From contig JBKHBH010000029.1 in assembly GCA_046542505.1 (NCBI GenBank), forward strand, positions 1 to 21,469: 21,469 nt of DNA, given 5' to 3'. Each line of letters starts with the position of its first letter. Position 1 is the first letter of the stretch. The notes beneath the pieces were generated by a model, which ran no database searches, had not been told where the DNA came from, and worked only from the letters and a program-made list of their open reading frames with translations. This stretch comes from Thermovirgaceae bacterium (GTDB lineage: Bacteria; Synergistota; Synergistia; Synergistales; Thermovirgaceae). Position numbers and translations under genes: made by a program. This document shows, one piece after another, positions 1,522 through 13,789 of the stretch.

Positions 1522-2253
1522 CTAGAAAACAGGAGTATCGGTACGCAAGAGATGTTTTTTTACATTTTCATCTTTTTCAAACTTTTCCAGGTTTTTACTG
1601 AGATGTTCCCGCATGTACCTGGATGCGGCTTCTTCATCTTGAGCAGCAATGGCTTCAAAAATCATTTTATGCTCGTTGAGTATAGTCTGCGGATCGATAT
1701 TCACGGCATAAAGCCTTTTTCGTCTAAAGGCTATGAAGTTTTTCATGAATGCCGAAAAGTTCTCGTAAATCCTCGACAAAAGGGGATTCTGGGAAGATTC
1801 GACAACGGAAGAATGAAAATAAGCATCCCAGGTACTGGCTTCACCTTCAATATCGGGAAAATCGACTTTTGCAAGGTTTTCAATACAGGACCGCATCTTA
1901 TCCAGATGATCTGGTTTTCTACGACGGGCAGACAAGGCCGCAGCGGGAATTTCAATCAGGAATCGCAATTCCATAACATGACGAATGTATTCCTCGGGCC
2001 ATATGGTCAGCGTTTCCAGATTCGTATCCAGTACGTCTAGAAGATTGTTCCGGATAAAGACACCTTGCCTCTCCCTAATTTCGACGATACCTTTTGCATC
2101 GAAAGCGACAAGAATTTCCCTGAGCAGGTTTCTGCTGATTTGAAGCTCATGAGCAAGTTCACGTTCAGGAGGGAGCTTTTCGACTCCTTTTCTCATCTGT
2201 CGCTTGATGATTTTCATGAGCTTTTCTCCAAGTTCTTTCCGCGATCGTGCCAT
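1522..2253 (-). CDS. GntR-family, FadR-subfamily transcriptional regulator (wHTH + FCD)
   Basis: HTH LPPERELAHELQISRNLLRE..GIVEIRERQG. FCD motifs ELRFLIE, DAYFH, SQNPLL, EHKMIFEAI and MREHL. SD-like AGGAG upstream. Confidence 0.93.
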   Translation of the reverse strand: MARSRKELGEKLMKIIKRQMRKGVEKLPPERELAHELQISRNLLREILVAFDAKGIVEIRERQGVFIRNNLLDVLDTNLETLTIWPEEYIRHVMELRFLIEIPAAALSARRRKPDHLDKMRSCIENLAKVDFPDIEGEASTWDAYFHSSVVESSQNPLLSRIYENFSAFMKNFIAFRRKRLYAVNIDPQTILNEHKMIFEAIAAQDEEAASRYMREHLSKNLEKFEKDENVKKHLLRTDTPVF

Positions 2254-2520: not shown

Positions 2521-3504
2521 TCAGGGAAGTATAAGCGTCTTTATTGGCGCCTCTTCTTTTCCACTGCATGCATGTTCGAAAGCACGCTGTATTTCATCCA
2601 GTCTGAATTCTACCTCTATGTATGGCATGATGTCCAAGATTTTTTGTTCCACAGGCCTCAATGCCTTTTGTGCCCACACATATCTCTCGTGCCAGGTATG
2701 ATGAACCAGGCATGTCGTGACGATACTGATTCCGTCATCATGCCACCGGCTGATATTAAGTCTGACAGGCTCGGTTATCCAGCTGTATAGAACAATCCTG
2801 CCGTTTCTTGCAACAATTTCCGACGCCAGGTTCATCGAAGATTCGGAGCCTGCGCATTCAACGACCACATCCGAGCCGGCTTCGCTCGAAACTTTTCCGG
2901 ACGCGCTACATATGTCGTCTTCGGGATGTAAAACAACATCTGCACCAAAGCGTTTAGCAACCTTCCGCTTTGCATCTGAGGGATCAACAGCTATAACCAT
3001 TGAAGCTCCCATCTTTTTTGCACACTGAACGATAACCTGCCCTGCGAAACCACACCCTATCACGGTCACCACATCGCCGAGCCGGATGCCGGCGTTCATA
3101 GCACTGAAAACCGCGCAAGCCGTCGGTTCACCAAGAGCAGTTTCGCGTTCGTTGAAGCTTTCAGGGGCAGGTTGCAGTTGCCACTCTTTTGCGGTGAAAT
3201 AATCAGCGAAATTGTTGTTCCAACCGAAGGAAATAACCCTGTCGCCTATGTTAAAATTGTTCACCCGTCTCCCTATCTCCACGATTTCCCCGCCACTTTC
3301 GTGTCCCAGTGGAAACGGGTAGGTTGGCGGGTGACGGAATTCGGTCGTAGAGGGTGGCATTTTTCCGCAAAAAATATTCTTGTCCGAGCCGCAGATGCCT
3401 ATAGCGGTGTTCTTGACCATGACCTCATCCGGGGCACAGCTTATTTCCTTTTCCACTATCGAGATTCGGCCTGGCTGATCTACCAACGCTGCCCGTGTCT
3501 TCAT
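2521..3504 (-). CDS. Zinc-dependent medium-chain alcohol/polyol dehydrogenase (threonine/sorbitol dehydrogenase-like)
   Basis: Catalytic Zn motifs GICGSD and LGHESGG, plus EPTAC, Rossmann motif GCGFAG and DVVVECAG. Confidence 0.9.
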   Translation of the reverse strand: MKTRAALVDQPGRISIVEKEISCAPDEVMVKNTAIGICGSDKNIFCGKMPPSTTEFRHPPTYPFPLGHESGGEIVEIGRRVNNFNIGDRVISFGWNNNFADYFTAKEWQLQPAPESFNERETALGEPTACAVFSAMNAGIRLGDVVTVIGCGFAGQVIVQCAKKMGASMVIAVDPSDAKRKVAKRFGADVVLHPEDDICSASGKVSSEAGSDVVVECAGSESSMNLASEIVARNGRIVLYSWITEPVRLNISRWHDDGISIVTTCLVHHTWHERYVWAQKALRPVEQKILDIMPYIEVEFRLDEIQRAFEHACSGKEEAPIKTLILP

Positions 3505-3562: not shown

Positions 3563-4837
3563 TTACATCAAAAGATCCGGGAGAAATGTGACAATTGACG
3601 GCACATAGGTTATCAGCAACAAGACACCTACAAGGATCAAAATCATTGGCCATACACGATAGGCTATCTTGTCGAAAGGTATTGCCGTGACTTTCTGAAC
3701 AACATAAAGAGCCATGCCCATTGGTGGAGTCAAAATGCCTATCAGCAGGTTTACGCACATGATAATGCCCAGATGAACTGGATCTATGCCCGCAGCGACC
3801 ATGGCGGGGACAAGTATTGGAGTAAGCAGTACGATTGCTGAATTGGTCTCAACAAAACATCCTACTACAAGAAGGGCTAAATTAAGAAAGAGGAGGATGA
3901 AGATCTTGCTGACCCCGGCCTTGCCAACGAATTCAACGAAAATCCTCGATGCCCCGGAAGCCGTCAACAACCACGAAAAAATGGCCGCAAAACCAATTAT
4001 AAGCATGATACTGGCGGAAGTTCGGGCCGACCCCTTGAGAACACTCCAGAAAGTCTTGAAAGTTATCGTCCTGTAATACAACCCGAGCATAAGGGAATAG
4101 GCGCTTGCTATAGCAGCGGCCTCCGTTGGGGTAAAAACACCTCCGAAAATGCCTCCGAGAATTATAACCGGCGATAGCAAAGAGAGAAAGGCTTTCTTGA
4201 AAGCAACCCAGACATTGGAAATGCTCGGTGCAGGGTGTATGACAAACTGTCCCGGATTACGTCTGCCTATAATCCAGATATAGCCCATCAGGGCAGTTCC
4301 CATGAGGATACCCGGAATCATCCCCGCAAGGAAAAGCCTGCCAACTGACACCCCTGCCAGCACACCGTAAAGGACATAAACAATGCTTGGTGGAATGATG
4401 GGTCCAATAGTCGAGGCAGCTGCGCAAATGGCGGCGGCTCGATCCTCAAGGAAACCGTCATCTTTCATTCCTTTTATCTGTATCGGCCCCAGTCCTCCGG
4501 CAGCCGCAAGTGCCGATCCACTCATGCTTGCAAAGAGCATACTCGTAAGGATCGTCACGTGTCCCATGCCCGCAGGCTTGTGACCTATCAGACTTCGGGC
4601 AAAATTCCAGAGTTTGTCTGTAACACCCGTCATATTCATCATGTTGCCGGCGAAGACAAAAAGAGGGAGCGCCATAAGTGGAAAACTGTCGAGCCCGACA
4701 AAAAGCCTCTGGGTCATTAGCGCATAAGGGAAGCCGTTGAAGTACATGACCAAAAGGGAAATGATACCAAGTGTAAATGCAATGGGAATTCCGGAAAACA
4801 GGAAGATAACGAAAAGAGCCAGCATGGCAAAAACCAT
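3563..4837 (-). CDS. dctM: TRAP transporter large permease
   Basis: Hydrophobic 424 aa with DSFPLMALPLF, SMSGSALA, IGPIIPPS, GGIFGGVFTPTEAA and GILTPPMG. Confidence 0.95.
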   Translation of the reverse strand: MVFAMLALFVIFLFSGIPIAFTLGIISLLVMYFNGFPYALMTQRLFVGLDSFPLMALPLFVFAGNMMNMTGVTDKLWNFARSLIGHKPAGMGHVTILTSMLFASMSGSALAAAGGLGPIQIKGMKDDGFLEDRAAAICAAASTIGPIIPPSIVYVLYGVLAGVSVGRLFLAGMIPGILMGTALMGYIWIIGRRNPGQFVIHPAPSISNVWVAFKKAFLSLLSPVIILGGIFGGVFTPTEAAAIASAYSLMLGLYYRTITFKTFWSVLKGSARTSASIMLIIGFAAIFSWLLTASGASRIFVEFVGKAGVSKIFILLFLNLALLVVGCFVETNSAIVLLTPILVPAMVAAGIDPVHLGIIMCVNLLIGILTPPMGMALYVVQKVTAIPFDKIAYRVWPMILILVGVLLLITYVPSIVTFLPDLLM

Positions 4838-5298
4838 TATTTCTCCCTCCTTTGGCCTGCCTTGAAAAGGTTGAAGAATGCCACAGCACCCATAAGCACG
4901 AACGCAACGGGAAGAATGGAATAAATAAGGTAGAGTGGAATACCGCTGCCAGGTGCTTCCTGACTACAGGCGACTGACGTCTGCATCAGCTTTACCCCGC
5001 TGTAAGCCATGAGAAAACAGAAAACCGACAGGATTCCACTGATCATGAACTCGAGAATATTCTTCAGAAAGGCGGGGAGTTTATTTATGAAATAATCCAT
5101 AAGGATATGGTCGTTTTCCTTGGTAATAATGATGCTGAAGACTAAAACGGAACAAATCATCGACCATCGCGCAAATTCTTCGGTCCATGGAGGTGGGGAA
5201 CTGAAAATATACCTTGCTACAATCTGGATAAGAACAAGGACTATCATTAAGCAGAAAAAAAAGGCGCCAATGCTCTCGATGGCTCGCTTGGTTTTCAA
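4837..5298 (-). CDS. dctQ: TRAP transporter small permease
   Basis: Four TM segments with QIVARY..PPWTEEFARW and HILMD. TTG start with GGAGG SD; the stop overlaps the dctM start (TAATG). Confidence 0.93.
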   Translation of the reverse strand: MKTKRAIESIGAFFFCLMIVLVLIQIVARYIFSSPPPWTEEFARWSMICSVLVFSIIITKENDHILMDYFINKLPAFLKNILEFMISGILSVFCFLMAYSGVKLMQTSVACSQEAPGSGIPLYLIYSILPVAFVLMGAVAFFNLFKAGQRREK

Positions 5299-5327
5299 GA
5301 AATAACCTCCTCTCAGTTCGCTCAGTT

Positions 5328-5361
5328 AGCGGGCCGTCTCCATTAATTGGGACGGCCCGCT
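5328..5361 (-). terminator. Intercistronic stem-loop between dctP and dctQ (partial terminator or mRNA stabiliser)
   Basis: 11-bp inverted repeat AGCGGGCCGTC / GACGGCCCGCT with no U-tract on the minus strand. Confidence 0.6.
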
Positions 5362-5375
5362 TATTGATTTATAGC

Positions 5376-6350
5376 CTATTTGGCTATATCTGCGATCTGC
5401 TGGTAGTATTCTTCCCCGAATTCCTCCGCCCAGTCTTCGTGCAGAGGCTGTACAGCTTCCTTGAAGGGTGCCAAATCAGGTTCGGTGATGGTGACTCCAT
5501 GTTCCTTCTCAATTTCCTCAAGAAGTGCCGCTTCGCGCTCCATGGCCACATTCCTTTGGTAGTGGGTGGCTTCCATGGCTGCTTCCTTTACGGCTTCCTG
5601 TTGCTCTTCAGATAATTTGTTCCAGAAAACCTTGCTTACAAGGAGTGGTGCATCGAGATAAATATGTCTTGTCATAGCAAGGAAGTCCTGAACTTCGTAA
5701 AATTTTTGCGTCATGATGTGGAAAATCGGATTTTCCTGGCCTTTGACCACACCTTGCTGGAGAGCAGAGTAAAGCTCTGGGAAGGGGATCGGAACAGGCT
5801 TGGCACCGAAAGCAATGAATGTGTCTCTGAACATGGGGCTTTCCGGCGTCCTTATTTTGAATCCTTTCAGGTCACCCATTGTTTCGATCTTCTTGCTCGA
5901 GGTAACGAGACGCCATCCGTTTTCCATGTTTGCCAGCCGCACGATTCCCATCTTGTCGAGCCCTTCGTAAACTTTGTTTGAGATTGGGCTGTCAAGAAAG
6001 GCATAGACGTGCTCGGGGCTTTCCCACATGTAAGGAAGCGGAATTATCGAGGCCATCGGCACAAAACTGTCGATGGGTCCTTCAATGGCAAACTCAAGCG
6101 TTCCCATCTGAAGGCTTTCCATCATGTCCCGGTCTCCGCCCAGCTGGCCTCCAGGATAGGTCTCCACCTCAACTGCGCCATTGGTTTTCTCTTTGACAAG
6201 TTCGGCAAACTTCTGCGCACCGACCTCAAAGATGTGGTCCGGAGCCCCCACGTGACCCAATTTTGCCTTCAAGGGAGCCGAAATCGCCATGCTGCCAAAA
6301 GAAACCACCAAAACCATTGCCATAAACAGGACAAAGCTTCTCCTTCTCAT
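5376..6350 (-). CDS. dctP: TRAP transporter periplasmic substrate-binding protein
   Basis: N-terminal signal peptide, YPGGQLG, NGWR, DLKGFKIRTP with the conserved anion-binding Arg, and PFPELYSALQQGVVKGQENP. GAGGAGG SD. Confidence 0.95.
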   Translation of the reverse strand: MRRRSFVLFMAMVLVVSFGSMAISAPLKAKLGHVGAPDHIFEVGAQKFAELVKEKTNGAVEVETYPGGQLGGDRDMMESLQMGTLEFAIEGPIDSFVPMASIIPLPYMWESPEHVYAFLDSPISNKVYEGLDKMGIVRLANMENGWRLVTSSKKIETMGDLKGFKIRTPESPMFRDTFIAFGAKPVPIPFPELYSALQQGVVKGQENPIFHIMTQKFYEVQDFLAMTRHIYLDAPLLVSKVFWNKLSEEQQEAVKEAAMEATHYQRNVAMEREAALLEEIEKEHGVTITEPDLAPFKEAVQPLHEDWAEEFGEEYYQQIADIAK

Positions 6351-6366
6351 AACGTAACCTCCTCGA

Positions 6367-7269
6367 TTAGTGTTGTTCCTTGCTGGAAATGCTTGTGCCG
6401 GTCACCTTTTCATATACCTTGACCACTGCGGAATGATCCTTGTTTCCAAGTCCGAGCGCACGTGCTCCTTCATAAGTCTGTTGCGCCAAGGCTGCGAAGG
6501 GGAGTGGAACGTTCAGCCCTTTTCCGGCATCCAGGGCAAGACAGATATCTTTGTGCTGAAGGTTGACCATGAAACCTGGCTCATAGTCATCCTCAAGCAT
6601 ATGAGGAACCCGGGTCTCCATGGCCCATGAACGCGCCGAACCGGAAGCAAGAACTTTCTGAAGCACTTCAGGGTCGATTCCAGCTTTGACACCCAGAGTG
6701 AAAGCTTCGGCAATCGCACACAGGCTCAGTCCGACAACGATTTGGTTACACATTTTCGCAGTCTGGCCAGCGCTGGTTTCTCCAACATGGACAAAATTGC
6801 CAAGGACAGAGAAAACCGGCTTTGCCTCTTCGAGATCCTTTTCTGAAGCACCCACCATGATCCCCAGCTTCCCTTTCTCTGCGCCGGCGACTCCTCCTGT
6901 TACCGGAGCGTCGATCAGCCTGAGTTGCCGTTCTTTCGCCTGTTCATTGAGTTTCTTTGTTACCAACGGGGAAATAGAACTCATGTCGATCAGCAGGGAT
7001 CCTTCGGTTGCTCCTTGAAATACCCCTTCGGGGCCCGCAAGGACTTCTTCAACATGTGGGGAATTCGGCAGCATTGTAATGATCAGCTTCGCCTGCGAAG
7101 CCACATCAGCAGGAGAATTCCCTACATCAGCCCCAATCGATTTGAACTCCTTCAGCACCGATTCAACTATGTCGTAAACAACAACGTCGTAACCTGCCTT
7201 GAGAAGATTTCGGGCCATGGGCCTTCCCATGTTGCCCAACCCTATAAATCCAATTTTCAACAATATCAC
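6367..7269 (-). CDS. NAD(P)-dependent beta-hydroxyacid dehydrogenase (tartronate semialdehyde reductase / 3-hydroxyisobutyrate dehydrogenase family)
   Basis: IGFIGLGNMGRPMA, ITMLPNSPHV, DMSSISP, DAPVTGG, catalytic AKMCNQ and FMVNLQHKD. The real start may be the TTG at 7263 or 7260. Confidence 0.92.
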   Translation of the reverse strand: MILLKIGFIGLGNMGRPMARNLLKAGYDVVVYDIVESVLKEFKSIGADVGNSPADVASQAKLIITMLPNSPHVEEVLAGPEGVFQGATEGSLLIDMSSISPLVTKKLNEQAKERQLRLIDAPVTGGVAGAEKGKLGIMVGASEKDLEEAKPVFSVLGNFVHVGETSAGQTAKMCNQIVVGLSLCAIAEAFTLGVKAGIDPEVLQKVLASGSARSWAMETRVPHMLEDDYEPGFMVNLQHKDICLALDAGKGLNVPLPFAALAQQTYEGARALGLGNKDHSAVVKVYEKVTGTSISSKEQH

Positions 7270-7293: not shown

Positions 7294-9153
7294 TTACCCG
7301 TACATTTCCCGGGCTACGTCCTCAAGCCCGAGCCGTTTTAGGGTCTCCTGTTTTGGGAGCCCTGTACCCCTATCCCAACCACGGGCTTCATAGGTCTCGT
7401 CGAGCAGCTTGTCAAGGGTTTCTCTGGGAATGTATTTGCCCTTCGATGGTCCACTGGGGATAGGTTCTTCCATGAATCTCCAGGGAAGTTTGTCGTCTTG
7501 CCTGGTTTCTCCTTCACGGATGTTCGTTGCGCGCTCCAGGGTATAGACTCGATCACTGATATCTTTGAGGTCATTCAGGGAAAGATCCATTCCCGTCGTC
7601 ACCTTGACGAGTCTTACATGATCTTCTGTCAGCCCTGTCGGTCCAAAAATGCCCTCAAGCATCCTGCACATGATCATGGTGTCCATGAACGTCGTCATTC
7701 GCTGAACTTCAACTTCATAAGTTCCCTTTCCTTCGATGGTGTTAGGATCCACAATACCGGCTCTTTCAGCGGTAGGTCTGCCGTCCTGATGAGTACCCCC
7801 TCTGTTCGAGGTAGCGTACCCTATCGCCATCCCAGGGAGCCCCCGGGCGGAATGAGCGGGAACCTCCAGGCCTTTGACCTGTATGGCATACTTCCAGGCA
7901 TCTCCGCCAAGATGCTCGGCGAAACGGACGGTTCCTTCTCCCATGACCCATCCAATGCCTTCACGGTTGCCGATCTTTTCCACGAGCTTGACCATGTTTT
8001 CATGATCACCGAAGGAGAGATCAATCCCGTCGAGAGCATTTTTATCAAGGAGGCCTCGTTCCGCGCATTCCATCGCCATCGAGATGACGCCGCCGCCCGA
8101 GATGGTGTCAAGACCATACTCGTCGCAAAGCCTATCGGCGGCTATGATTGCGTCTATTTCTCCGACACCGCAGTTTGACCCCAGTGAAAAAAGCGTTTCA
8201 TACTCGGGCCCGACGCTCAAATATTCGCCATACTGACCTTCACGCGCCTTATTTACCTTTGCGCAGGCAATGGCACAGCCGAAGCACGCATCATTGGCAA
8301 CAAAATTGTTTTCCTTCAGGTATTTCCCACCTATCAGTTCTGCTTTCTCAAATTGTTCTTCCTGGTAATTTCTGGTTCCAAGCATACCCAGCTTGTTATT
8401 GACCTCTACTACAGCAGCGGTCCCGTAGGTCGGAAGTCCGGTTCCTGTTCCGGGGTTTTCACGGATACGCTCCCGGATTTCACTCGCGAACTCCTCAAAG
8501 GCTTCAATGTCCGCAACCTTGACGGATCCGGTCCCATGGACCGCCACGGCCTTCAGGTTCTTTGAACCCATAACGGCGCCTACTCCTCCACGCCCCGCTG
8601 CATGAACTCCGGATATAATGCAGGCAATTCTGGCAAGCTTTTCTCCTGCAGGTCCTATACAGGCCGTTGCAATGTCTTTTTCGCCGGTCAGCTCTCTCAA
8701 CTTGTTCTGGACGTCGAAAGTTTTGCCACCCCAAAGAGTTTCAGCATCGCGTATCTCAACCTTGTCATCATTGATCCAGAGATAGACAGGACTGTCAGCT
8801 TTTCCTTCCAGTACGATCCCGTCATAACCCGCATATTTCAAATAGGCTCCGAATTCTCCACCAACGTAGGAATCGATAAACCTGTTGTTCAGCGGAGATT
8901 TTGTTGCGATCATGAGTCTTGACCCGCAGACGGGCATGTTTGTCCCCGTTACGGGCCCGGTGAAAAACAAAAGCTTGTTTTGTTCACTCAACGGATCGAC
9001 ACCGGCAGGTATTTCGTCATAAATAATCTTTGCCGCAAAACCGTTTCCTCCAATAAACTGTTCCGCAAAACCATCTTCCACTTTTTCCGTCTCAATGCTT
9101 CGTTCCGAGAGGTTGACCCGGAGTATTTTGCCCATATAACCACTGTATTTCAT
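7294..9153 (-). CDS. aor: Aldehyde:ferredoxin oxidoreductase family (tungstopterin WOR) large subunit
   Basis: 619 aa with GYMGKILRVNL, KSPL, AGYDGIV, pterin-binding AAGRGGVGAVMGSKNLKA, [4Fe-4S] motif CFGCAIAC plus a distal Cys (IMCR), GPEYET, DEYGLDTIS and YEARGWD..GLP. Confidence 0.95.
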   Translation of the reverse strand: MKYSGYMGKILRVNLSERSIETEKVEDGFAEQFIGGNGFAAKIIYDEIPAGVDPLSEQNKLLFFTGPVTGTNMPVCGSRLMIATKSPLNNRFIDSYVGGEFGAYLKYAGYDGIVLEGKADSPVYLWINDDKVEIRDAETLWGGKTFDVQNKLRELTGEKDIATACIGPAGEKLARIACIISGVHAAGRGGVGAVMGSKNLKAVAVHGTGSVKVADIEAFEEFASEIRERIRENPGTGTGLPTYGTAAVVEVNNKLGMLGTRNYQEEQFEKAELIGGKYLKENNFVANDACFGCAIACAKVNKAREGQYGEYLSVGPEYETLFSLGSNCGVGEIDAIIAADRLCDEYGLDTISGGGVISMAMECAERGLLDKNALDGIDLSFGDHENMVKLVEKIGNREGIGWVMGEGTVRFAEHLGGDAWKYAIQVKGLEVPAHSARGLPGMAIGYATSNRGGTHQDGRPTAERAGIVDPNTIEGKGTYEVEVQRMTTFMDTMIMCRMLEGIFGPTGLTEDHVRLVKVTTGMDLSLNDLKDISDRVYTLERATNIREGETRQDDKLPWRFMEEPIPSGPSKGKYIPRETLDKLLDETYEARGWDRGTGLPKQETLKRLGLEDVAREMYG

Positions 9154-9155
9154 CT

Positions 9156-9434
9156 TTATCCCCCCACCACTGGACTGATGAAGAGCAACTCGTCTCCATC
9201 ATTCAAGGGTCGTTCAAATGCTTCCGGAAATCGCACCATTTGGCCGTTAATTGCAACGATTAAATATCGTGGTTTGCCGGTAGACGGCTCTACAACCTGT
9301 TTGTAAGGCTCTCCGTTGTCGATATGCTTCATCTTTTCGAGCACATCAGCAACAGTCCCACTGGCATCAAAAAACACTGAAAATTCATTCAATCCCGGAA
9401 TCCCTTCAATGTAAACCTGGACCGAAATCCCCAT
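9156..9434 (-). CDS. MoaD/ThiS-family sulfur carrier (ubiquitin-like)
   Basis: About 92 aa ending in LNDGDELLFISPVVGG (C-terminal di-Gly). Start moved to ATG 9434 behind a GAGGTG SD. Confidence 0.88.
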   Translation of the reverse strand: MGISVQVYIEGIPGLNEFSVFFDASGTVADVLEKMKHIDNGEPYKQVVEPSTGKPRYLIVAINGQMVRFPEAFERPLNDGDELLFISPVVGG

Positions 9435-9464
9435 ACACGCTTCACACCTCACCGGCTCCAAGAA

Positions 9465-9866
9465 TCAATCCTCCAGTGTTATTGCAACTTTGGGGCACTG
9501 TTTGATACATTCCGGCGAACCACCACAAAGATCGCATTTGAAGGCTTTTTTCGTTTCATTGTTAATGAAGATGGCATCAAACGGGCAGGCGTCCACACAT
9601 TTCCCGCACCCGATACATTTTTCTTCATCAACGAGCCAGGTTCCCAACTCATCCTGACTGATTGCATTTACCGGGCATGCCTCGGCACAGGGAGCATCAT
9701 CACATTGCCTGCAATAATCCATACCCAGTTCATGAGGCAACTTCTCCCTGTAAATCCTGATCCGTGCATGCGAGGGCTGATAGACTTGCTCTTTCGCTTC
9801 GCTGCAAGCAAGCATACAAATCCCGCATCCTGTGCACTTTCCGCGATCAACTACGATATGGGCCAT
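9465..9866 (-). CDS. 4x[4Fe-4S] electron-transfer subunit (DmsB/HycB-like), probable WOR small subunit
   Basis: Four Cys motifs: CTGCGICMLAC, CRQCDDAPCAEACP, CIGCGKCVDACP and CDLCGGSPECIKQCP. ATG 9866 follows AAGGAGG. Confidence 0.92.
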   Translation of the reverse strand: MAHIVVDRGKCTGCGICMLACSEAKEQVYQPSHARIRIYREKLPHELGMDYCRQCDDAPCAEACPVNAISQDELGTWLVDEEKCIGCGKCVDACPFDAIFINNETKKAFKCDLCGGSPECIKQCPKVAITLED

Positions 9867-9888: not shown

Positions 9889-10527
9889 CTATTGCTTCGC
9901 CTTATTGCCTTCAGCCATCATCCCGAGGATCCGCTCCACGCGTGGGGTATTGACAACACCACACACGCATTGGCTCGCAATCGTCTCAGCCGCATCTTTG
10001 AGTTTAGTCTTGCCGTTGGCTACCTCTTCAGCCATTTTGTCGACAAGATCAAAAGGAATCATTCCGTGGCCACACATCGTCGATATTTCAAGGACGGGTT
10101 CTTCCGGAAGTTTCTCTTTCTTGCCCCAGATTCCAAGAGAACGCTCAACAGTGTGCATTTTCATTTCGTTTTTCCTGCAACACTGATCGATCGAATGAAC
10201 AATGCCGGATACAACGATGGAAAGACCCAAATCTGCTGTCTTTAGTTCTTTTAAGACAACAGAGAGAGTTTCCTCATCGTTAAAAACGGCGTGCACGATG
10301 GAATTGTCCATCATATCCTTGCCGACCCCTTCAAGACCCAGCATGTATTTGTTTCCTTTTTTCATGTCACCCATATTGGATGGATTGTGTTTCTTTACGA
10401 TTTCGAAAAATTTCTCGAATTTGGGTGCACTGTTCTTTGCATTAACACTTTGGGCTGCAATGGCAAAAACTACAAAATCGTCTTTCAAGGATTCTTCGCT
10501 ACCCCGTCTATGCAATGTATGAGTCAT
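9889..10527 (-). CDS. Conserved hypothetical protein with putative metal/Fe-S ligands
   Basis: Tightly packed in the operon with a GGAGG SD; start is ATG 10527 or GTG 10533. Motifs MTHTLHRRG, GLSIVVSG, CC, TMCGHG and CVCG. I cannot assign a function. Confidence 0.85.
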   Translation of the reverse strand: MTHTLHRRGSEESLKDDFVVFAIAAQSVNAKNSAPKFEKFFEIVKKHNPSNMGDMKKGNKYMLGLEGVGKDMMDNSIVHAVFNDEETLSVVLKELKTADLGLSIVVSGIVHSIDQCCRKNEMKMHTVERSLGIWGKKEKLPEEPVLEISTMCGHGMIPFDLVDKMAEEVANGKTKLKDAAETIASQCVCGVVNTPRVERILGMMAEGNKAKQ

Positions 10528-10532
10528 TTTCA

Positions 10533-11249
10533 CTACACCTCCGCAAGTGGTCTTCCAAGTCCAACGTTGACTTTTCCGTTGACCGAGTAAGCAAGTCCCA
10601 TTTCCTCCAGCACTCTTTCAAAATAGGGAACACCCGAATCATCAGTCACGCCGCAAATGTCCAGACTGAAAACGGTTTCAATTTCACCCGAGACTTTTTC
10701 CAACTCTTCAAGGACTTCCTTGATCTTTTCATCAGACACAAAGAACTCGACTATCGCGGACAGAGCCTTTTCCTGAAGATACTTGTCCTCGATTTCTCCC
10801 GTCTTTTTGTCCTTCATTATTGCTGTGACGGGGTTAAGAGGTTCAAACTCGACATTGTGTTTTGCACAGGCCTGCGCAACTTTCTGGACATCGTAGAAAC
10901 GCGTGCCTGTACCCGGACGGCCAAGTTCCGCAGCAATCCCTGTGTACCCTTTCTTGAACCGGCCTGTCACATCGTTCGTTTTCATTTCTTCGGTTCCCCG
11001 ACCAGGGACGGATGTGCTGCTGTGACTGATCAGGGGATTACTGAAGGCCTTTCTCAAATTTCTCATCTCATCAAGTTCGGGCTCGTAAATCGCTTCCACG
11101 GGACAGACATTGCTTGACTTGCACACCCCACACTCAACGCATTCATCCTGATCTATGAATGCTTTCCCTTCCCGCATTTCGATGCAACTCATAGGGCAAT
11201 AATTCGTACAAAGACTGCAACCAATGCATTTCTCCCTGTCGATTTTCAT
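10533..11249 (-). CDS. N-terminal 2x[4Fe-4S] ferredoxin domain fused to an uncharacterised domain
   Basis: CIGCSLCTNYCP and CVECGVCKSSNVCP, followed by VPGRGTEEMKTNDVTGRF and ELGRPGTGTRF. Start moved to ATG 11249 behind a GAAAGGAAGG SD. Confidence 0.88.
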   Translation of the reverse strand: MKIDREKCIGCSLCTNYCPMSCIEMREGKAFIDQDECVECGVCKSSNVCPVEAIYEPELDEMRNLRKAFSNPLISHSSTSVPGRGTEEMKTNDVTGRFKKGYTGIAAELGRPGTGTRFYDVQKVAQACAKHNVEFEPLNPVTAIMKDKKTGEIEDKYLQEKALSAIVEFFVSDEKIKEVLEELEKVSGEIETVFSLDICGVTDDSGVPYFERVLEEMGLAYSVNGKVNVGLGRPLAEV

Positions 11250-11341: not shown

Positions 11342-11371
11342 ATTATACCATATGCATCGCGAAATATGCAA
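11342..11371 (-). promoter_or_regulatory. Sigma70-type promoter of the WOR/TRAP operon
   Basis: Minus strand TTGCAT-N18-TATAAT with an extended -10 (TGGTATAAT). Confidence 0.7.
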
Positions 11372-11585
11372 AAGGCTTTTCTTCACAAATAATATGTTTG
11401 CTTTACGGACTCTTCCTAGGGGTCAACAGCACTTCATTCAGCGTCAGCAAAAATACATCAAACACAAATGGGTCGTGGCTTCTCCTAGATGGTTGATGCA
11501 CGAAGAACGAGCCATGACAGTAGCCAAGAAGAACATAGGCGTCTTTGGGAATGAAAACCTTTTACCGGCTGGCTGCTTTGTCGTT

Positions 11586-12818
11586 TTAAAACCTTTTGTT
11601 TCCAGACTGGTAGCCTTGCCCGAGGAGGAGAAAAGCACTGAGAAGGACGGCCGAGACCGTCAGAAAAAGCGGGCGAAATCCCGTCATATCGACGAAAAAA
11701 CCGCCCAAGGGCGGGAGAAGGGCCACAAGGATATCCAAGGTTCCGCGAATCCCCAGAAAAAGGGGCCGGTCGTCGTCGGGGACGATGTCGAGCAGGTAGG
11801 GTTCGAAACCCACACGCCTTCCACTGTACATGAAGCCCGTCAGAAGAAAGACGGGATAAAATCCCGCCGGCCCGAAGCGAACCGCAAAGAGGGCCAGAAC
11901 CGGCGTCACCGCACCGATGAGGATGCAGGCTCCGACCACCGCCTTTGAAGTCCATTTCCTCGAAAGCGCCCCCCAGACGAGGTTGGACAAAAGAATTCCC
12001 GCCGTCTGGACGATCAGGTAGCGCCCCACGTAACTCCCCCCGAGGTCGAAACTCTCCTTGGCGAAAAGCATGTAAAAGGGGAGGACCATGAGGCCGAAAC
12101 CCGAGAGGTTTTCCACGATGACGAAGCGGCGGAATTCCGGGTTGGTCTTCAGAAGCTGCGGGATGCTTTTGAAAAGGGCCCTTATGGGCTCCCGTTTCTC
12201 CCGGGCCCTGGACGGCGGCTCTTCGATGAACCAGAAGGCGCCCGCAGCCACCATCAACCCGACGAAACCGATGAAAAGAAGGACTGCATACCCCCGGGGA
12301 AACCCCATGGACGCCGCCCCCAGCGTGCCGGCCACGATAAATCCACCGGCTACGGAGGCTCCCCCCGAGATAAACTGCTTGACGGCGTAGAGGGTACCCC
12401 GCTCACCCGACGGGACGAGCTTGGCGACGATATCGGCGTAGACCAGTCCCGCAAGGCCGCCACTCAGGGCGAAAAGAACGAGCCAGACGAAAAGGCTCGC
12501 CACCACCAGACCAGGTGCGGACCGGGCGAAAAACCAGACGAAAACGGCCATGCCAAGAAAGGCCGCCGCCCGGATGTAGATGCCCAGGATCAAAAAAGGC
12601 CGCCTGTATTGAAAGGTCGAGAGAAAATGTCCGAAAAGGACGTTGAAAAGGTAGGGACCTGCCAGCAGAATCGAATAGAGCAGGCCGAAAACCGTCCTCG
12701 ACGGCGTCAGTTCGTCCACAAGGGCGGGAAGGACCGTCCCGAAGTTTATCATCGCAAGGGTCAGCGCGAGAAAAAAGCCGTGCCAGATGAAGATGGCATA
12801 AACGGATCGGCGTTTCAT
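11586..12818 (-). CDS. MFS transporter
   Basis: About 410 aa with roughly 12 hydrophobic segments; DIVAKLVPSGERG, WGALSRKW and DDRPLFLG. Start moved to ATG 12818 behind a GGGAGG SD. Confidence 0.9.
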   Translation of the reverse strand: MKRRSVYAIFIWHGFFLALTLAMINFGTVLPALVDELTPSRTVFGLLYSILLAGPYLFNVLFGHFLSTFQYRRPFLILGIYIRAAAFLGMAVFVWFFARSAPGLVVASLFVWLVLFALSGGLAGLVYADIVAKLVPSGERGTLYAVKQFISGGASVAGGFIVAGTLGAASMGFPRGYAVLLFIGFVGLMVAAGAFWFIEEPPSRAREKREPIRALFKSIPQLLKTNPEFRRFVIVENLSGFGLMVLPFYMLFAKESFDLGGSYVGRYLIVQTAGILLSNLVWGALSRKWTSKAVVGACILIGAVTPVLALFAVRFGPAGFYPVFLLTGFMYSGRRVGFEPYLLDIVPDDDRPLFLGIRGTLDILVALLPPLGGFFVDMTGFRPLFLTVSAVLLSAFLLLGQGYQSGNKRF

Positions 12819-12841
12819 CCAGTCCCTCCCGTATAACATCT

Positions 12842-12864
12842 GTACGATGGCAATGCCATTGTAC
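12842..12864. promoter_or_regulatory. Inverted repeat overlapping the predicted extended -10 of the MFS gene
   Basis: GTACGATGGCA-A-TGCCATTGTAC (11-1-11, one mismatch). The minus strand reads TGGTACAAT across its upstream edge. Confidence 0.5.
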
Positions 12865-12880
12865 CAATAGACCCGGGTAA

Positions 12881-12936
12881 AAAGCCCCAAAAGGGCGCCC
12901 GAAAGCAGCTGCTTCCGGGCGCCCTTTTGGGGCTTT
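12881..12936 (-). terminator. 56-bp near-perfect palindrome, probable terminator of the 12950-13789 gene
   Basis: AAAGCCCCAAAAGGGCGCCCG / CGGGCGCCCTTTTGGGGCTTT around a self-complementary AAGCAGCTGCTT core. It ends in TTTTT on the minus strand. Confidence 0.75.
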
Positions 12937-12949
12937 CACTTCAGGTATC

Positions 12950-13789
12950 TCAAGCCGCCTGTCCGCTGTCGCCGGAGGACCCGTCCCTTGCAGCCTCTTT
13001 TACCTGATGCCGCTTCCCTGGTTCGGCCGCCCCGCTGGCATCAAGCCCCAAAGTCTCTATCCTGAGGGCTCCCTTGGGGCACACGGCAACGCAGTCCATG
13101 CAGCCGTAACATTCGGGACTCACGGGAAGCGTCTTCGATCCCCCTTCAGCCCGGGTCTTTTCGGCCTGTTCCAGAAGCGGGTCCAGAAGCCTTTCGGAAA
13201 GGTCGCACACCGACGTGCAGAGCCTGCAGTTCACGCACTTGTCCGCGTCCAGGACCACGGGGCTGCGTTTCGTCGCAGTAGCCATCAGCGAGCCCAGTGT
13301 TCCGCCCGGACAAATATGTGCGCAGAAAGACCGCGGCTCGAAAACGAGGGCCATGACGGCCGCAAGGGCAAGCATCACCTGGCAGAACCGCAGAAAGAGA
13401 AAGCCGTGCTGCGCGTAGGATGCGTATGCCACGGGAAGCCCCTTGTGAATGTTGACGAGCCAGACGATCCATCCGAAATAGGCGAGCATTCCCATGAAGA
13501 AAACTCCCTGGAGGATGCGTCCCTTGTTGAGCCACCGGGGAAAGGGAACCAGTCTCAGCGAGATTTTGCTCCAGATGAGATCAATGAACCCCCCGTTGGG
13601 ACACAGCATCCCGCACCAGATCTTCCCCCTGAAGGCGGCAAGCAGGCCTCCAAGGGCAATCATGAGAACGCAGAACCACCACTGCTTCATGATGAACACG
13701 GCCACGATGAAGGCGATCACAAGTTGCAACTGGAGGACGCTGCGAATGCCCTTCCAGGTTTTTGAATCGAGCTGGTTTTTTCCTGCCAT
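12950..13789 (-). CDS. Membrane 4Fe-4S-binding protein (NapH/MauN/YccM-like polyferredoxin)
   Basis: About four TM helices, two CxxxCP motifs (WCGMLCP, FCAHICP) and a C-terminal dicluster (CVNCRLCTSVC, CYGCMDCVAVCP). Confidence 0.9.
   Translation of the reverse strand: MAGKNQLDSKTWKGIRSVLQLQLVIAFIVAVFIMKQWWFCVLMIALGGLLAAFRGKIWCGMLCPNGGFIDLIWSKISLRLVPFPRWLNKGRILQGVFFMGMLAYFGWIVWLVNIHKGLPVAYASYAQHGFLFLRFCQVMLALAAVMALVFEPRSFCAHICPGGTLGSLMATATKRSPVVLDADKCVNCRLCTSVCDLSERLLDPLLEQAEKTRAEGGSKTLPVSPECYGCMDCVAVCPKGALRIETLGLDASGAAEPGKRHQVKEAARDGSSGDSGQAA

Follow-up and report, generated by a model that had tools for sequence, protein, structure and literature searches.

In the window, i.e. the whole 21,469-nt stretch analysed here, two adjacent genes, A and B, precede genes for a tungsten-type oxidoreductase, a transporter and two dehydrogenases, and the question is whether their products are subunits of one enzyme, as an earlier note on this DNA supposed, and what step such an enzyme would catalyse. 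Database labels for the pair say only 'hypothetical protein' and '4Fe-4S binding protein'. Such pairs lead many operons with which strict anaerobes degrade organic acids; as long as this step is blank, the pathways concerned resist reconstruction. The pairs also bear on the coupling partners of Class II tungsten oxidoreductases and of the unstudied mini-CODHs. Judging by sequence, A and B, outside the described protein families, are most likely the two subunits of a metalloenzyme that takes part in the breakdown of organic acids.

The genes and the candidate promoter are located as follows.

10533-11249, minus strand: gene A, 238 aa; an N-terminal 2x[4Fe-4S] ferredoxin domain and a C-terminal domain outside any described family.
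9889-10527, minus strand: gene B, 212 aa from the ATG at 10527; a protein outside any described family.
11342-11371, minus strand: candidate sigma-70 promoter, read by eye (TTGCAT, 18 nt, TGgTATAAT), about 93 nt upstream of the ATG of A.

The two genes had been described as abutting or overlapping at a TAG/GTG junction at 10533. The junction exists, and an alternative start of B at this GTG, which has one base in common with the TAG of A, is mechanically possible, but the true start is almost certainly the ATG at 10527, 5 nt past the stop of A, because all 99 aligned B homologues begin with M-[TS]-H and GGAGG lies 8-9 nt 5' of this codon. The residue numbers of B given below run from the GTG at 10533. 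It is also plausible that A and B head the operon, as supposed: the gap upstream of A is 336 nt, and an extended -10 element, TGgTATAAT, can be read there by eye at 11342-11350. A scan for consensus promoters listed no site upstream of A, since the -35 element of the candidate is weak (three of six positions matching); this promoter may nevertheless drive the operon.

Both proteins carry several conserved elements.

11070-11249, minus strand: residues 1-60 of A, clostridial-type dicluster ferredoxin domain (C8, C11, C14, C18; C37, C40, C43, C49).
10536-11069, minus strand: residues 61-238 of A, domain outside any described family with an ACT-like beta-alpha-beta-beta-alpha-beta core.
10968-11003, minus strand: residues 83-94 of A, invariant loop GRGTEEMKTNDV (GRGTEEMKTND).
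10911-10928, minus strand: residues 108-113 of A, invariant loop ELGRPG.
10507-10527, minus strand: N-terminus of B, M-T-H-T-L-H-R, a conserved histidine-rich start (THTLH is residues 4-8).
10060-10080, minus strand: T152-M-C154-G-H156-G-M158 of B (TMCGHG, 152-157), one Cys and the His of a putative metal site.
9958-9969, minus strand: C189-V-C191-G192 of B, two more Cys of the putative metal site.

Thus, all the motifs listed in the earlier note (the stretched ferredoxin motif, ELGRPG, THTLH, CC, TMCGHG and CxCG) are present on the minus strand, and as sequence patterns the motifs of A and B are far beyond chance.

The N-terminus of A belongs to the 4Fe-4S dicluster ferredoxin domains (Pfam Fer4 clan): residues 1-56 match PF12797, PF00037 and PF12838 above their cut-offs, the domain superposes on 2x[4Fe-4S] ferredoxin structures with Z of 8-9.8 and rmsd of 1.3-1.9 over 54-60 residues, and all eight ferredoxin Cys are invariant in 89 A homologues. 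The first cluster motif is C8xxC11xxC14xxxC18P, and the second, stretched one is C37xxC40xxC43-x5-C49P (CxxCxxCx5CP). With both CxxCxxC...CP motifs, residues 1-60 resemble the ferredoxin-domain subunits (PorD-type delta, FwdG) and the clostridial 2x[4Fe-4S] ferredoxin; however, the spacer in the second motif has five residues rather than three, the other 178 residues of A match nothing described, and B is no known catalytic subunit. For the C-terminal domain of A there was no match in Pfam or NCBIfam, nor any PDB sequence match by profile, and a Foldseek search of A against the PDB matched only the ferredoxin domain; the core at approximately 96-200 yields generic matches to ACT-like folds (Z 6.2-6.4). 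More than 3,500 A homologues were found, and in the 89 compared G83-E88, K90-N92, E108 and G110-P112 do not vary. The invariant polar residues that are not cluster ligands include R66, R84, E87, E88, K90, T91, N92, E108 and R111, and further N139, S164, E168 and K226; the protein ends with the tail NGKxNxGLGRP.

In B, conservation was counted over 133 divergent representatives (29-50% identity). C154, G155 and H156 are each present in 133 of 133, C189 and C191 in 132 each, and N195 in 100%; at the N-terminus, H5 is kept in 117 representatives, H8 in 123, and R9 in 98%. The expected conservation of Cys and His residues therefore holds for three invariant Cys and one invariant His and fails for the CC pair at residues 118-119 (C119, 77/133; C118, 48/133). 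The invariant polar residues other than ligands are R9, D19, H127 and N195. We infer that C154, H156, C189 and C191 form the core of B, a putative metal site, whose metal centre would most likely be an Fe-S cluster with one His ligand; against the latter counts that a Cys3His set is likewise typical for zinc, structural or catalytic.

Site-differentiated and His-ligated Fe-S centres include the aconitase/IspH-type [4Fe-4S] cluster with three Cys and the CDGSH/mitoNEET [2Fe-2S] cluster with three Cys and one His. The ligand inventory of B, including the CxC pair, is similar to these, but the order and spacing of the ligands (C-G-H, 32 residues, C-x-C) and the fold are different. In particular, the CDGSH motif is C-x-C-x2-[ST]-x3-P-x-C-D-G-[SAT]-H, whereas in B C154-G-H156 and C189-x-C191 follow in the opposite order and there is no Pfam match, hence B has no CDGSH domain.

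A and B were considered together in 79 loci taken from other species, a non-random sample in that these score best among at least 576. For 84 of the 85 B genes in these loci, gene A lies directly upstream on the same strand, and the sole unpaired B sits at a contig edge; likewise, 84 of 88 family-A matches are paired with B, the four unpaired ones being weak matches. The genes overlap by 4 nt in 20 of the 84 pairs, and translational coupling of A and B is strongly supported. Natural A-B fusions occur as well (P0244, 456 aa; an ORF of L046, 463 aa). The complex predicted for A and B reaches an ipSAE of 0.92 (0.01 for the best control), a mark that 116 of 157 complexes of solved structure attain, as do 2 of 215 mismatched pairs, with at least 89% contact agreement between runs and partner pLDDT of at least 89; as no similar complex has been solved, this result does not reflect a memorised structure. 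The predicted interface, given as residue lists, comprises on A 15-21 and 40-46, both near its ferredoxin clusters, together with 87-95, 106-114 and 219-235, and on B 3-10, 119, 124-139, 151-163 and 187-191, coinciding with the invariant motifs of both proteins, the loops and C-terminal tail of A among them; the putative metal ligands of B are thus predicted to lie beside the ferredoxin domain of A. Adjacency, fusion and the predicted complex thus strongly support an obligate pair, the subunits of one heterodimer, in agreement with what had been proposed.

The suggestion of a new metalloenzyme pair also stands, as searches of Pfam, NCBIfam, PDB sequences and folds gave no confident match to a characterised enzyme. 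For B there was none in Pfam, NCBIfam or PDB sequences, profile search included, and no fold match either in Foldseek against the PDB (best E 0.013, all E>0.01) or in a wide VIA structure search (best Z 4.9); a search for longer, fused or named B relatives returned two unnamed proteins, and in the ESM Atlas both A and B fall into unnamed clusters only. DUF362 (PF04015), the NCBI name of some A homologues, does not match A at E<=1, nor does it match 12 A homologues missing part of the ferredoxin domain. In manner of working the pair resembles LutABC, a flavin-free multi-subunit Fe-S system of lactate utilisation with one ferredoxin-domain subunit, found in carboxylate-catabolic operons under GntR/FCD regulators, but it has two subunits instead of three and no relation to LutABC in sequence or fold; neither LUD (PF02589) nor CCG (PF02754) domains are seen in A or B at E<=1. 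The accessible parts of the literature, including those of PMC13328260, PMC3328121, PMC8776680, PMC6344411 and PMC13056359, contain no description of the pair. Hence none of the findings that the earlier note had named as fatal to its proposal, i.e. unconserved Cys and His residues, a lack of co-occurrence or a confident match to an enzyme, was made.

The C-terminal domain of A (approximately 96-200) and the N-half of B (approximately 17-112; Z 4-4.9, weak) have a core fold in common with ACT, PII and MTH1187/YkoF-like domains; however, the scores are typical of a common arrangement, with no sequence relation and no common ligand site. These ACT/PII-like ferredoxin folds could point to a ligand- or redox-sensing or cofactor-handling protein, whose ACT-like domains would bind a small molecule in regulation or in metalloenzyme maturation. 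The regulators that often directly adjoin the pair (GntR/FCD, sigma-54 activators, CitA-type kinases) would suit this, as would the His-rich N-terminus of B, a possible metal hook, and the association with Ni- or W-enzymes in 22 of the 79 best-scoring loci (of at least 576). We nevertheless consider a sensor or cofactor handler very improbable, since regulators beside the operons they control are the rule and uninformative on A-B, most of those 79 best-scoring loci (of at least 576) have no metalloenzyme client, and the folds match weakly (Z 4-6) and in a generic way.

As a side observation, hhalign aligns A 84-221 with B 10-126 collinearly and insignificantly (P 0.038, probability 1.4%), a hint that the two may share an ancient duplication.

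Downstream of B, the window contains the following genes.

9465-9866, minus strand: WorS/CooF-type polyferredoxin, 133 aa from the ATG at 9866, 22 nt past the stop of B; Pfam Fer4_11 and others.
9156-9461, minus strand: MoaD/ThiS-like small protein (PF02597; MoaD family TIGR01687 below cut-off).
7294-9153, minus strand: large subunit of a tungsten-type aldehyde:ferredoxin oxidoreductase (AOR), 619 aa (PF02730, E 2e-78; PF01314, E 8e-129).
6367-7269, minus strand: beta-hydroxyacid dehydrogenase of the 3-hydroxyisobutyrate / tartronate-semialdehyde reductase (HIBDH) family (PF03446, PF14833).
3563-6350, minus strand: TRAP transporter (DctP, 5376-6350; DctQ, 4837-5298; DctM, 3563-4837).
2521-3504, minus strand: Zn-dependent medium-chain alcohol/polyol dehydrogenase (PF00107, PF08240).
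1522-2253, minus strand: GntR/FCD-family regulator (PF00392, PF07729), the last same-strand gene of the cluster.

The upstream TPP enzyme at 4-987 was considered as a glyoxylate carboligase and rejected; it is a biosynthetic acetolactate synthase and unrelated.

The best PDB match of the HIBDH-family protein is 3cky, 2-(hydroxymethyl)glutarate dehydrogenase (E 1.9e-80), and its best NCBIfam match is 2-hydroxy-3-oxopropionate reductase, with 307 bits, under the cut-off of 397. 3cky is Hgd of the Eubacterium barkeri nicotinate pathway, and this match, together with frequent amidohydrolase neighbours elsewhere, had prompted the idea of A-B as the 6-hydroxynicotinate reductase of that pathway; the amidohydrolase neighbour matches Xaa-Pro-dipeptidase-type enzymes and no enamidase chain at E<=1e-10.

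At least 576 species genomes carry the pair (Bacillota, Chloroflexota, Thermodesulfobacteriota, Bacteroidota, NC10 and others), Synergistota-like relatives of the window included, and family B forms 846 clusters at 50% identity among 1.84 billion proteins. A genome may contain up to five copies, and L058 has three tandem pairs. In 43 of the 79 best-scoring loci (of at least 576) a transporter gene lies within 7 kb (TRAP, n = 17; TTT, n = 14); recurrent neighbours in this best-scoring set are Zn-ADH (n = 12), the HIBDH family, amidohydrolase and GntR (n = 10 each), and rarer ones RraA and PanB (n = 5 each), IlvD and UxaA dehydratases, and glycerate kinases. An AOR, mini-CODH or polyferredoxin is near the pair in 22 of the 79 best-scoring loci (of at least 576); in the remaining approximately 57 no redox partner is nearby, which counts against a redox enzyme. 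On a quick B tree built without bootstrap, the context labels follow the tree (33 changes, compared with 52.4 on shuffling; 0 of 200 shuffles give as few). As no third partner is universal, which argues against reading one reaction from context, the neighbourhoods provide a theme for A-B rather than a reaction. Transporters, dehydrogenases, amidohydrolase, GntR, aldolase-type enzymes, dehydratases and glycerate kinases make this theme one of organic acids, and the redox part of it comes from the 22 loci just mentioned and from P0267, a natural fusion of B with a polyferredoxin.

It had been supposed that A-B could be an electron-accepting module for the tungsten oxidoreductase (WOR), as no NADH/flavin (HydABC-like) subunits were seen. 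Indeed, the operon of the window encodes none, and the window has no CODH. The WOR itself fits Class II (WorL and WorS) of PMC13328260, whose accessible part makes no mention of A-B. Compared with the electron modules of WORs (the WorS polyferredoxin; the WorABC bifurcating 'plug', as in Acetomicrobium mobile WOR1; AorC), the pair adjoins WorS-WorL here, but has no flavin or NAD(P) domain and mostly occurs without an AOR. Moreover, there are just two clusters in A and no Fer4 motif in B, and WorS is a separate gene, so that the pair does not qualify as a WOR/AOR electron-transfer subunit. An AOR is found within 7 kb of the pair in 8 of the 79 best-scoring loci (of at least 576), and no AOR match at E<=1e-10 was obtained for 4 of 19 B-positive genomes (92-99% complete) from the phylum of the window; on the same quick tree, the 7 rows with the AOR label lie scattered, with 6 changes, and 72 of 500 shuffles give as few. 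Thus, the link between A-B and AOR is local, not general, and a role as the electron-accepting module of WOR is not supported for the family at large.

The pair could still be an electron-transfer adaptor, or 'plug', leading from the polyferredoxin wires of WOR/AOR or of mini-CODH to a cellular carrier, and not an enzyme. The order in the window, with B followed after 22 nt by a WorS-type polyferredoxin, the MoaD-like protein and AOR, recurs in L024 and in G110, a genome of the same family, and an operon with no NADH/flavin module would suit an adaptor, as would the P0267 fusion. Similarly, in 14 of the 79 best-scoring loci (of at least 576) a CooF-type polyferredoxin and an approximately 495-aa CODH-like protein of the mini-CooS/clade G Ni-CODH kind, sometimes with an NAD(P)H flavoprotein, stand directly upstream of A; the accessible parts of Techtmann 2012 (PMC3328121) and Inoue 2022 (PMC8776680) note the cooF neighbour alone for mini-CooS/clade G, and in that of PMC13056359 clades G and H are left out of the neighbourhood analysis. 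We find an adaptor quite unlikely, given the low AOR counts and the scattered AOR label above, the 22 of 79 best-scoring loci (of at least 576) with any of AOR, mini-CODH or polyferredoxin, and the minimal clusters of a regulator and A-B only (L083, L086). The pair looks like an enzyme rather than a wire because many polar residues other than ligands are invariant, because it has expanded into paralogues, and because its context tracks the B tree.

If A-B is an enzyme, it could be a non-redox Fe-S hydro-lyase or isomerase, e.g. a dehydratase of di- or tri-hydroxy acids, with the cluster of B as Lewis acid and the ferredoxin domain of A either structural or keeping that cluster reduced or repaired. 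Three invariant Cys and a His could hold a site-differentiated cluster, and the neighbouring enzymes use 4-hydroxy-2-oxo acids or products of these: among the 79 best-scoring loci (of at least 576), 8 have an RraA-type aldolase or PanB directly upstream of A and 6 have HIBDH immediately downstream, and glycerate kinases occur. The nearest solved relatives of the window's DctP are 4p47 and 4pdd; according to the accessible part of PMC11668362, where OaIseP was the query, its homologues include ligand-free 4P47, and the others are mostly bound to pantoate or erythronate, which also favours such a dehydratase. On the other hand, eight invariant ferredoxin Cys (89 A sequences) would be costly for a non-redox enzyme, and known dehydratases (IlvD/Edd, UxaA/GarD) are already present in some A-B clusters. 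Neither A nor B has a Pfam, NCBIfam or PDB-sequence match to aconitase, IlvD/Edd, Fe-S serine dehydratase or UxaA/GarD, and Fe-S hydro-lyase families are absent from their listed fold matches. We therefore regard a hydro-lyase as unlikely.

In the preferred reading, A-B is a heterodimeric Fe-S enzyme, linked to ferredoxin, whose substrates are small hydroxy- or oxo-carboxylates; in this specific form we judge the reading evenly poised between right and wrong. Electrons would enter or leave via the two [4Fe-4S] clusters of the ferredoxin domain of A and pass to the metal centre of B held by C154, H156, C189 and C191, which would serve a composite active site at the A-B interface. To this site B may contribute its N-terminus M-T-H-x-x-H-R, D19, H127/T128, N195 and R198, and A the loops GRGTEEMKTND and ELGRPG and the C-terminal tail (K226). 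The substrate would be a small hydroxy- or oxo-carboxylate imported by the TRAP transporter of the cluster, elsewhere by TTT, and the reaction a ferredoxin-linked redox step, perhaps reductive dehydroxylation or reduction, consuming low-potential electrons. Alternatively, the enzyme could perform an Fe-S-type oxidation of a hydroxy acid, against which counts that hydroxy-acid oxidation at the ferredoxin level is thermodynamically awkward. In the window, the pair and the neighbouring tungsten AOR probably exchange these low-potential electrons by way of the polyferredoxin 22 nt past B; such coupling would be a local arrangement, not the role that defines the family. As a defined heterodimer with clear candidates for the metal site and for the active-site residues, and with natural fusions, the pair lends itself readily to anaerobic expression, spectroscopy and structure determination.

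A more elaborate reading takes A-B as a new class of anaerobic metalloenzymes, in which a His-ligated Fe-S cluster on B, fed by A, would work together with a second, mononuclear metal site built from the N-terminal M-T-H-x-x-H-R hook, D19 and H127 of B. It would carry out ferredoxin-driven reduction, e.g. reductive dehydroxylation, of small hydroxy- or oxo-acids, separate subfamilies being specialised on separate acids. Taken jointly, these features make a tentative and unlikely picture; if true, A-B would provide fermenting and syntrophic bacteria with an internal sink for the low-potential electrons from tungsten AORs and mini-CODHs.

The genes of interest, A (encoding a ferredoxin-domain protein) and B (its Cys/His-rich partner), and those following them all lie on the minus strand of the window:

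11249 to 10533, minus strand: gene A, 238 residues
From ATG 10527, minus strand: gene B, 212 aa, directly after A (residue numbers count from the GTG at 10533)
From ATG 9866 (the real start), 22 nt after B, minus strand: WorS/CooF-type polyferredoxin
3' of the polyferredoxin gene, minus strand: MoaD-like protein
3' of the MoaD-like gene, minus strand: tungsten-type aldehyde oxidoreductase (AOR)
3' of the AOR gene, minus strand: beta-hydroxyacid dehydrogenase
3' of the latter, minus strand: TRAP transporter DctPQM
3' of the TRAP genes, minus strand: Zn-dependent dehydrogenase
Last downstream of B, minus strand: GntR/FCD regulator

The ORF finder starts B at a GTG sharing one base with the TAG of A (10533). 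Since GGAGG precedes the ATG at 10527, we took this ATG, 5 nt past the stop of A, as the start; every aligned B homologue begins with M-[TS]-H-x-x-H-R. An extended -10 box was seen by eye in the 336-nt gap 5' of A and was not listed by the promoter scan. The heptamer TGCATAT occurs twice at 11351-11370 (minus strand), across this candidate promoter, the copies, also noted by eye only, being 13 nt apart start to start with 6 nt between them; the GntR/FCD regulator could use this repeat as its operator.

Residues 1-56 of A form a clostridial-type two-cluster ferredoxin domain (Pfam Fer4 families) with the motifs C8xxC11xxC14xxxC18P and C37xxC40xxC43x5C49P, the latter bearing out the stretched second motif described in the earlier note. 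The remaining ~180 residues, which carry GRGTEEMKTNDV (residues 83-94) and ELGRPG (108-113), match no Pfam or NCBIfam model. Among 89 A homologues all eight ferredoxin cysteines are invariant, as are R66, S70, P72, T79, G83-R-G-T-E-E88, K90-T-N92, T95, E108, G110-R-P112, N139-P140, S164, E168, T192, G225-K226 and L231-G232, and the C-domain has no conserved Cys.

By sequence, B has no match in Pfam, NCBIfam or PDB. It carries THTLH (4-8), CC (118-119), TMCGHG (152-157) and CVCG (189-192). A profile search of the whole library (1.84 billion proteins; E<=0.001) yielded 846 clusters, from which 133 full-length representatives, 29-50% identical to the window's B, were aligned. C154, G155 and H156 are present in 133/133, C189 and C191 in 132/133 each, N195 in 100%, R9 in 98%, D19 in 94%, H127 in 93%, H8 in 92% and H5 in 88%. 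As C154, H156, C189 and C191 are near-universal, the putative metal-binding core of the family is Cys3His, in agreement with the earlier suggestion of three Cys and possibly a His. The CC pair does not hold as a family feature (C119 in 77/133, C118 in 48/133, as is H81) and is lineage-specific. Whichever functional reading applies, the site may bind zinc instead of an Fe-S cluster.

In a pattern scan with one genome per species, at least 576 genomes encode a B relative. The best-scoring 79 loci, not a random sample, were retained, with crude gene calls (longest ORFs). Searched with HMMs built from the homologues, these loci yielded 85 B genes, 84 of which directly follow a family-A gene on the same strand; the only exception lies at base 23 of its contig. 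Conversely, 84/88 family-A matches are paired with B, the other four being weak, and 20/84 pairs overlap by 4 nt. The pairing of A with B is obligate. They are sometimes joined: P0244 (456 aa) clearly carries A, a linker and B in one chain, a single 463-aa ORF (L046:8248-9639) matches both models, and in P0267 (411 aa) B is fused to a four-cluster-type polyferredoxin, mirroring the window's gene order of B followed by polyferredoxin.

With both alignments supplied, the predicted A-B complex has an ipSAE of 0.92, compared with 0.01 for the best control; the score rests on alignments made in this analysis, and the same mark is attained by 116/157 solved complexes and 2/215 mismatched pairs. At least 89% of contacts agree between runs, with partner pLDDT at least 89. 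PDB searches found no similar solved complex, hence the score does not derive from a structure already known to the predictor. The predicted interface comprises conserved elements of both proteins: residues 15-21 and 40-46 (around the clusters), 87-95, 106-114 and the C-terminal tail 219-235 of A, and 3-10, 119, 124-139, 151-163 and 187-191 of B. This would be expected for electron transfer from the clusters to B and an active site common to both subunits. Synteny, fusions and the modelled complex together support the heterodimer proposed in the earlier note.

Both predicted folds are confident (pLDDT 89.6 for A, 90.7 for B). The N-terminal half of B is modelled as beta-alpha-beta-beta-alpha-beta, and the C-terminal half as helical, bearing the Cys/His ligands. 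In the Foldseek comparison that the earlier note proposed, B matched nothing in PDB at E<=0.001. The exhaustive VIA search for B reached Z 4.9 at best, all matches being generic ferredoxin-fold or PII/ACT-like. In A, only the ferredoxin domain matched well (Z 8-9.8); the A C-domain scored about Z 6.2-6.4 against ACT-like domains. Profile searches against PDB sequences gave nothing for B or the A C-domain, and ESM Atlas neighbours of both proteins fall in unnamed clusters only. In a profile-profile comparison A 84-221 (window 10587-11000) aligns collinearly with B 10-126 (10156-10506), insignificantly (P 0.038, probability 1.4%), pairing RGTEEMKTND with RGSEESLKDD, NPVT..M.D..TG with NPSN.MGDMKKGN and SAIVEF with NSIVHAV; this is no more than a hint that the A C-domain and the B N-half may go back to an ancient duplication and pair as a pseudo-symmetric dimer.

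The ferredoxin domain of A is ordinary, whereas all else of A-B lies outside described families. A has no profile match to DUF362, the name NCBI gives some homologues; the pair did not fall into LUD/CCG (LutABC; Pfam), Fe-S hydro-lyases (Pfam, NCBIfam) or WOR electron modules, nor B into CDGSH proteins (Pfam). Literature searches found no mention of the pair, nor did the accessible parts of PMC13328260, PMC3328121, PMC8776680, PMC6344411 and PMC13056359. We rate A-B as a protein system outside every known family, new as such; the kind of reaction it carries out is probably a familiar one, Fe-S redox or Lewis-acid catalysis.

For the neighbourhoods, 979 ORFs within 7 kb were clustered and named via Pfam, NCBIfam and PDB searches. 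Among the best 79 of at least 576 loci no third gene is universal; a transporter of any kind occurs in 43 (TRAP 17, TTT 14), a ~495-aa CODH-like protein (mini-CooS) in 14, Zn-ADH, polyferredoxin and a response regulator in 12 each, the 3-hydroxyisobutyrate dehydrogenase (HIBDH) family, a Xaa-Pro-dipeptidase-like amidohydrolase and GntR in 10 each, a sCache-type histidine kinase in 9, AOR in 8, an NAD(P)H flavoprotein in 7, and RraA-type aldolase, PanB and PCC in 5 each. IlvD and UxaA dehydratases, glycerate kinases, PdxA, HMGL-like and Ldh_2 enzymes are scattered. Some relatives comprise GntR, A and B alone (L083, L086); L085 has an amidase, a DcuC carrier and a D-2-hydroxyacid dehydrogenase, and L087 an OYE-type Fe-S flavoenzyme with an aconitase-family protein. 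In Bacteroidota (L054, L056) A-B clusters with an apiosidase-like glycoside hydrolase, RraA-type aldolase, HIBDH, amidohydrolase and FGGY kinase, and in a Dehalococcoidia locus (L058:8282-12706) three A-B pairs stand in tandem after a TRAP transporter.

Mini-CooS lies directly upstream of A-B in L026, L029, L031, L032 (6738-8225), L035, L037-L040, L042, L048, L052, L059 and L019, usually in the order CooF-type polyferredoxin, mini-CODH, sometimes a PadH-like NAD(P)H flavoprotein, then A and B. It matches CODH-II in PDB with E 3e-27 over residues 5-82 and 174-467. We found no description of this set in the portions of the literature available; according to the accessible part of PMC13056359, CODH clades G and H were excluded from its neighbourhood analysis.

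In a quick maximum-likelihood phylogeny built from 84 B sequences the context labels cluster (33 changes vs 52.4 in shuffles; as low in 0/200). One starred clade holds 12/15 mini-CODH rows, and the aldolase/HIBDH/amidohydrolase context forms one well-supported clade with members from five phyla, suggesting that the entire cluster was transferred as a unit. The tree places the window's B next to Bacillota pairs with a TTT context, a grouping that is not strongly supported. AOR contexts are dispersed over the tree (6 label changes in 7 rows; a value this low in 72/500 shuffles). Of 151 genomes from the window's phylum, 19 carry B (13/54 genera, up to 5 copies) and 81 carry AOR; on the co-occurrence of B with AOR, 15/19 B-positive genomes have AOR, and four (G054, G092, G128, G138; 92-99% complete) lack it at E<=1e-10. 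AOR, mini-CODH or polyferredoxin, any of them, accompany A-B in 22/79 of the best loci. That A-B is purely an electron-transfer adaptor for WOR or mini-CODH is therefore a reading we hold to be quite unlikely: obligate pairing, natural fusions, a large number of invariant polar residues besides the metal ligands, expansion into paralogues and clade-specific contexts argue for a substrate-converting enzyme of diversified specificity, not a housekeeping electron carrier. A sensing or maturation role is very improbable.

The invariant built-in ferredoxin domain of A and the recurrent, independently acquired AOR, mini-CODH and NAD(P)H:polyferredoxin neighbourhoods argue that electrons form part of the reaction. 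A non-redox Fe-S hydro-lyase is unlikely. We give an even chance to A-B being a heterodimeric Fe-S oxidoreductase linked to ferredoxin, its active site composed from both subunits, in which electrons would pass from the clusters of A to a centre on B, the pair in the window being wired to AOR through the polyferredoxin.

Small hydroxy- or oxo-carboxylates are the substrates suggested by the neighbouring genes, which encode transporters, GntR/FCD regulators, dehydrogenases of polyols and hydroxy acids, aldolases for 4-hydroxy-2-oxo acids, and glycerate kinases. The solved proteins closest to the window's TRAP binding protein are 4p47 and 4pdd. We take 4PDD, 4PAK and 4NQ8 to carry erythronate or pantoate. 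The ligand-free 4P47 is among the OaIseP homologues, most of them bound to pantoate or erythronate (PMC11668362, accessible part). In a genome of the same family (L081, G110:C50:3000-22000) the window's operon recurs in identical gene order, with a divergent GntR gene upstream and a glycerate 2-kinase (DUF4147/MOFRL) after it, which hints that the pathway ends in glycerate.

The window's genome (2.1 Mb) is very rich in tungsten enzymes, with the AOR C-terminal family PF01314 matched 11 times across at least six contigs, and has a single copy of B; G057 and G094, of the same phylum, have 4-5 B matches each. An MFS-type ORF 5' of A (11586-12890, minus strand) may be degraded or mis-started, since PF07690 matches it partially, in two stretches within residues 261-422, and hairpins resembling terminators lie within it (11701-11714 and 11850-11868). 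The plus-strand ORF 11352-11948 (198 aa), which overlaps it and has no family match, is probably spurious. Between the MFS gene and the gene of a membrane Fer4 protein (12950-13789), a perfect 20-bp G+C-rich hairpin at 12885-12932 has T runs after it on both strands and resembles a strong terminator acting in both directions.
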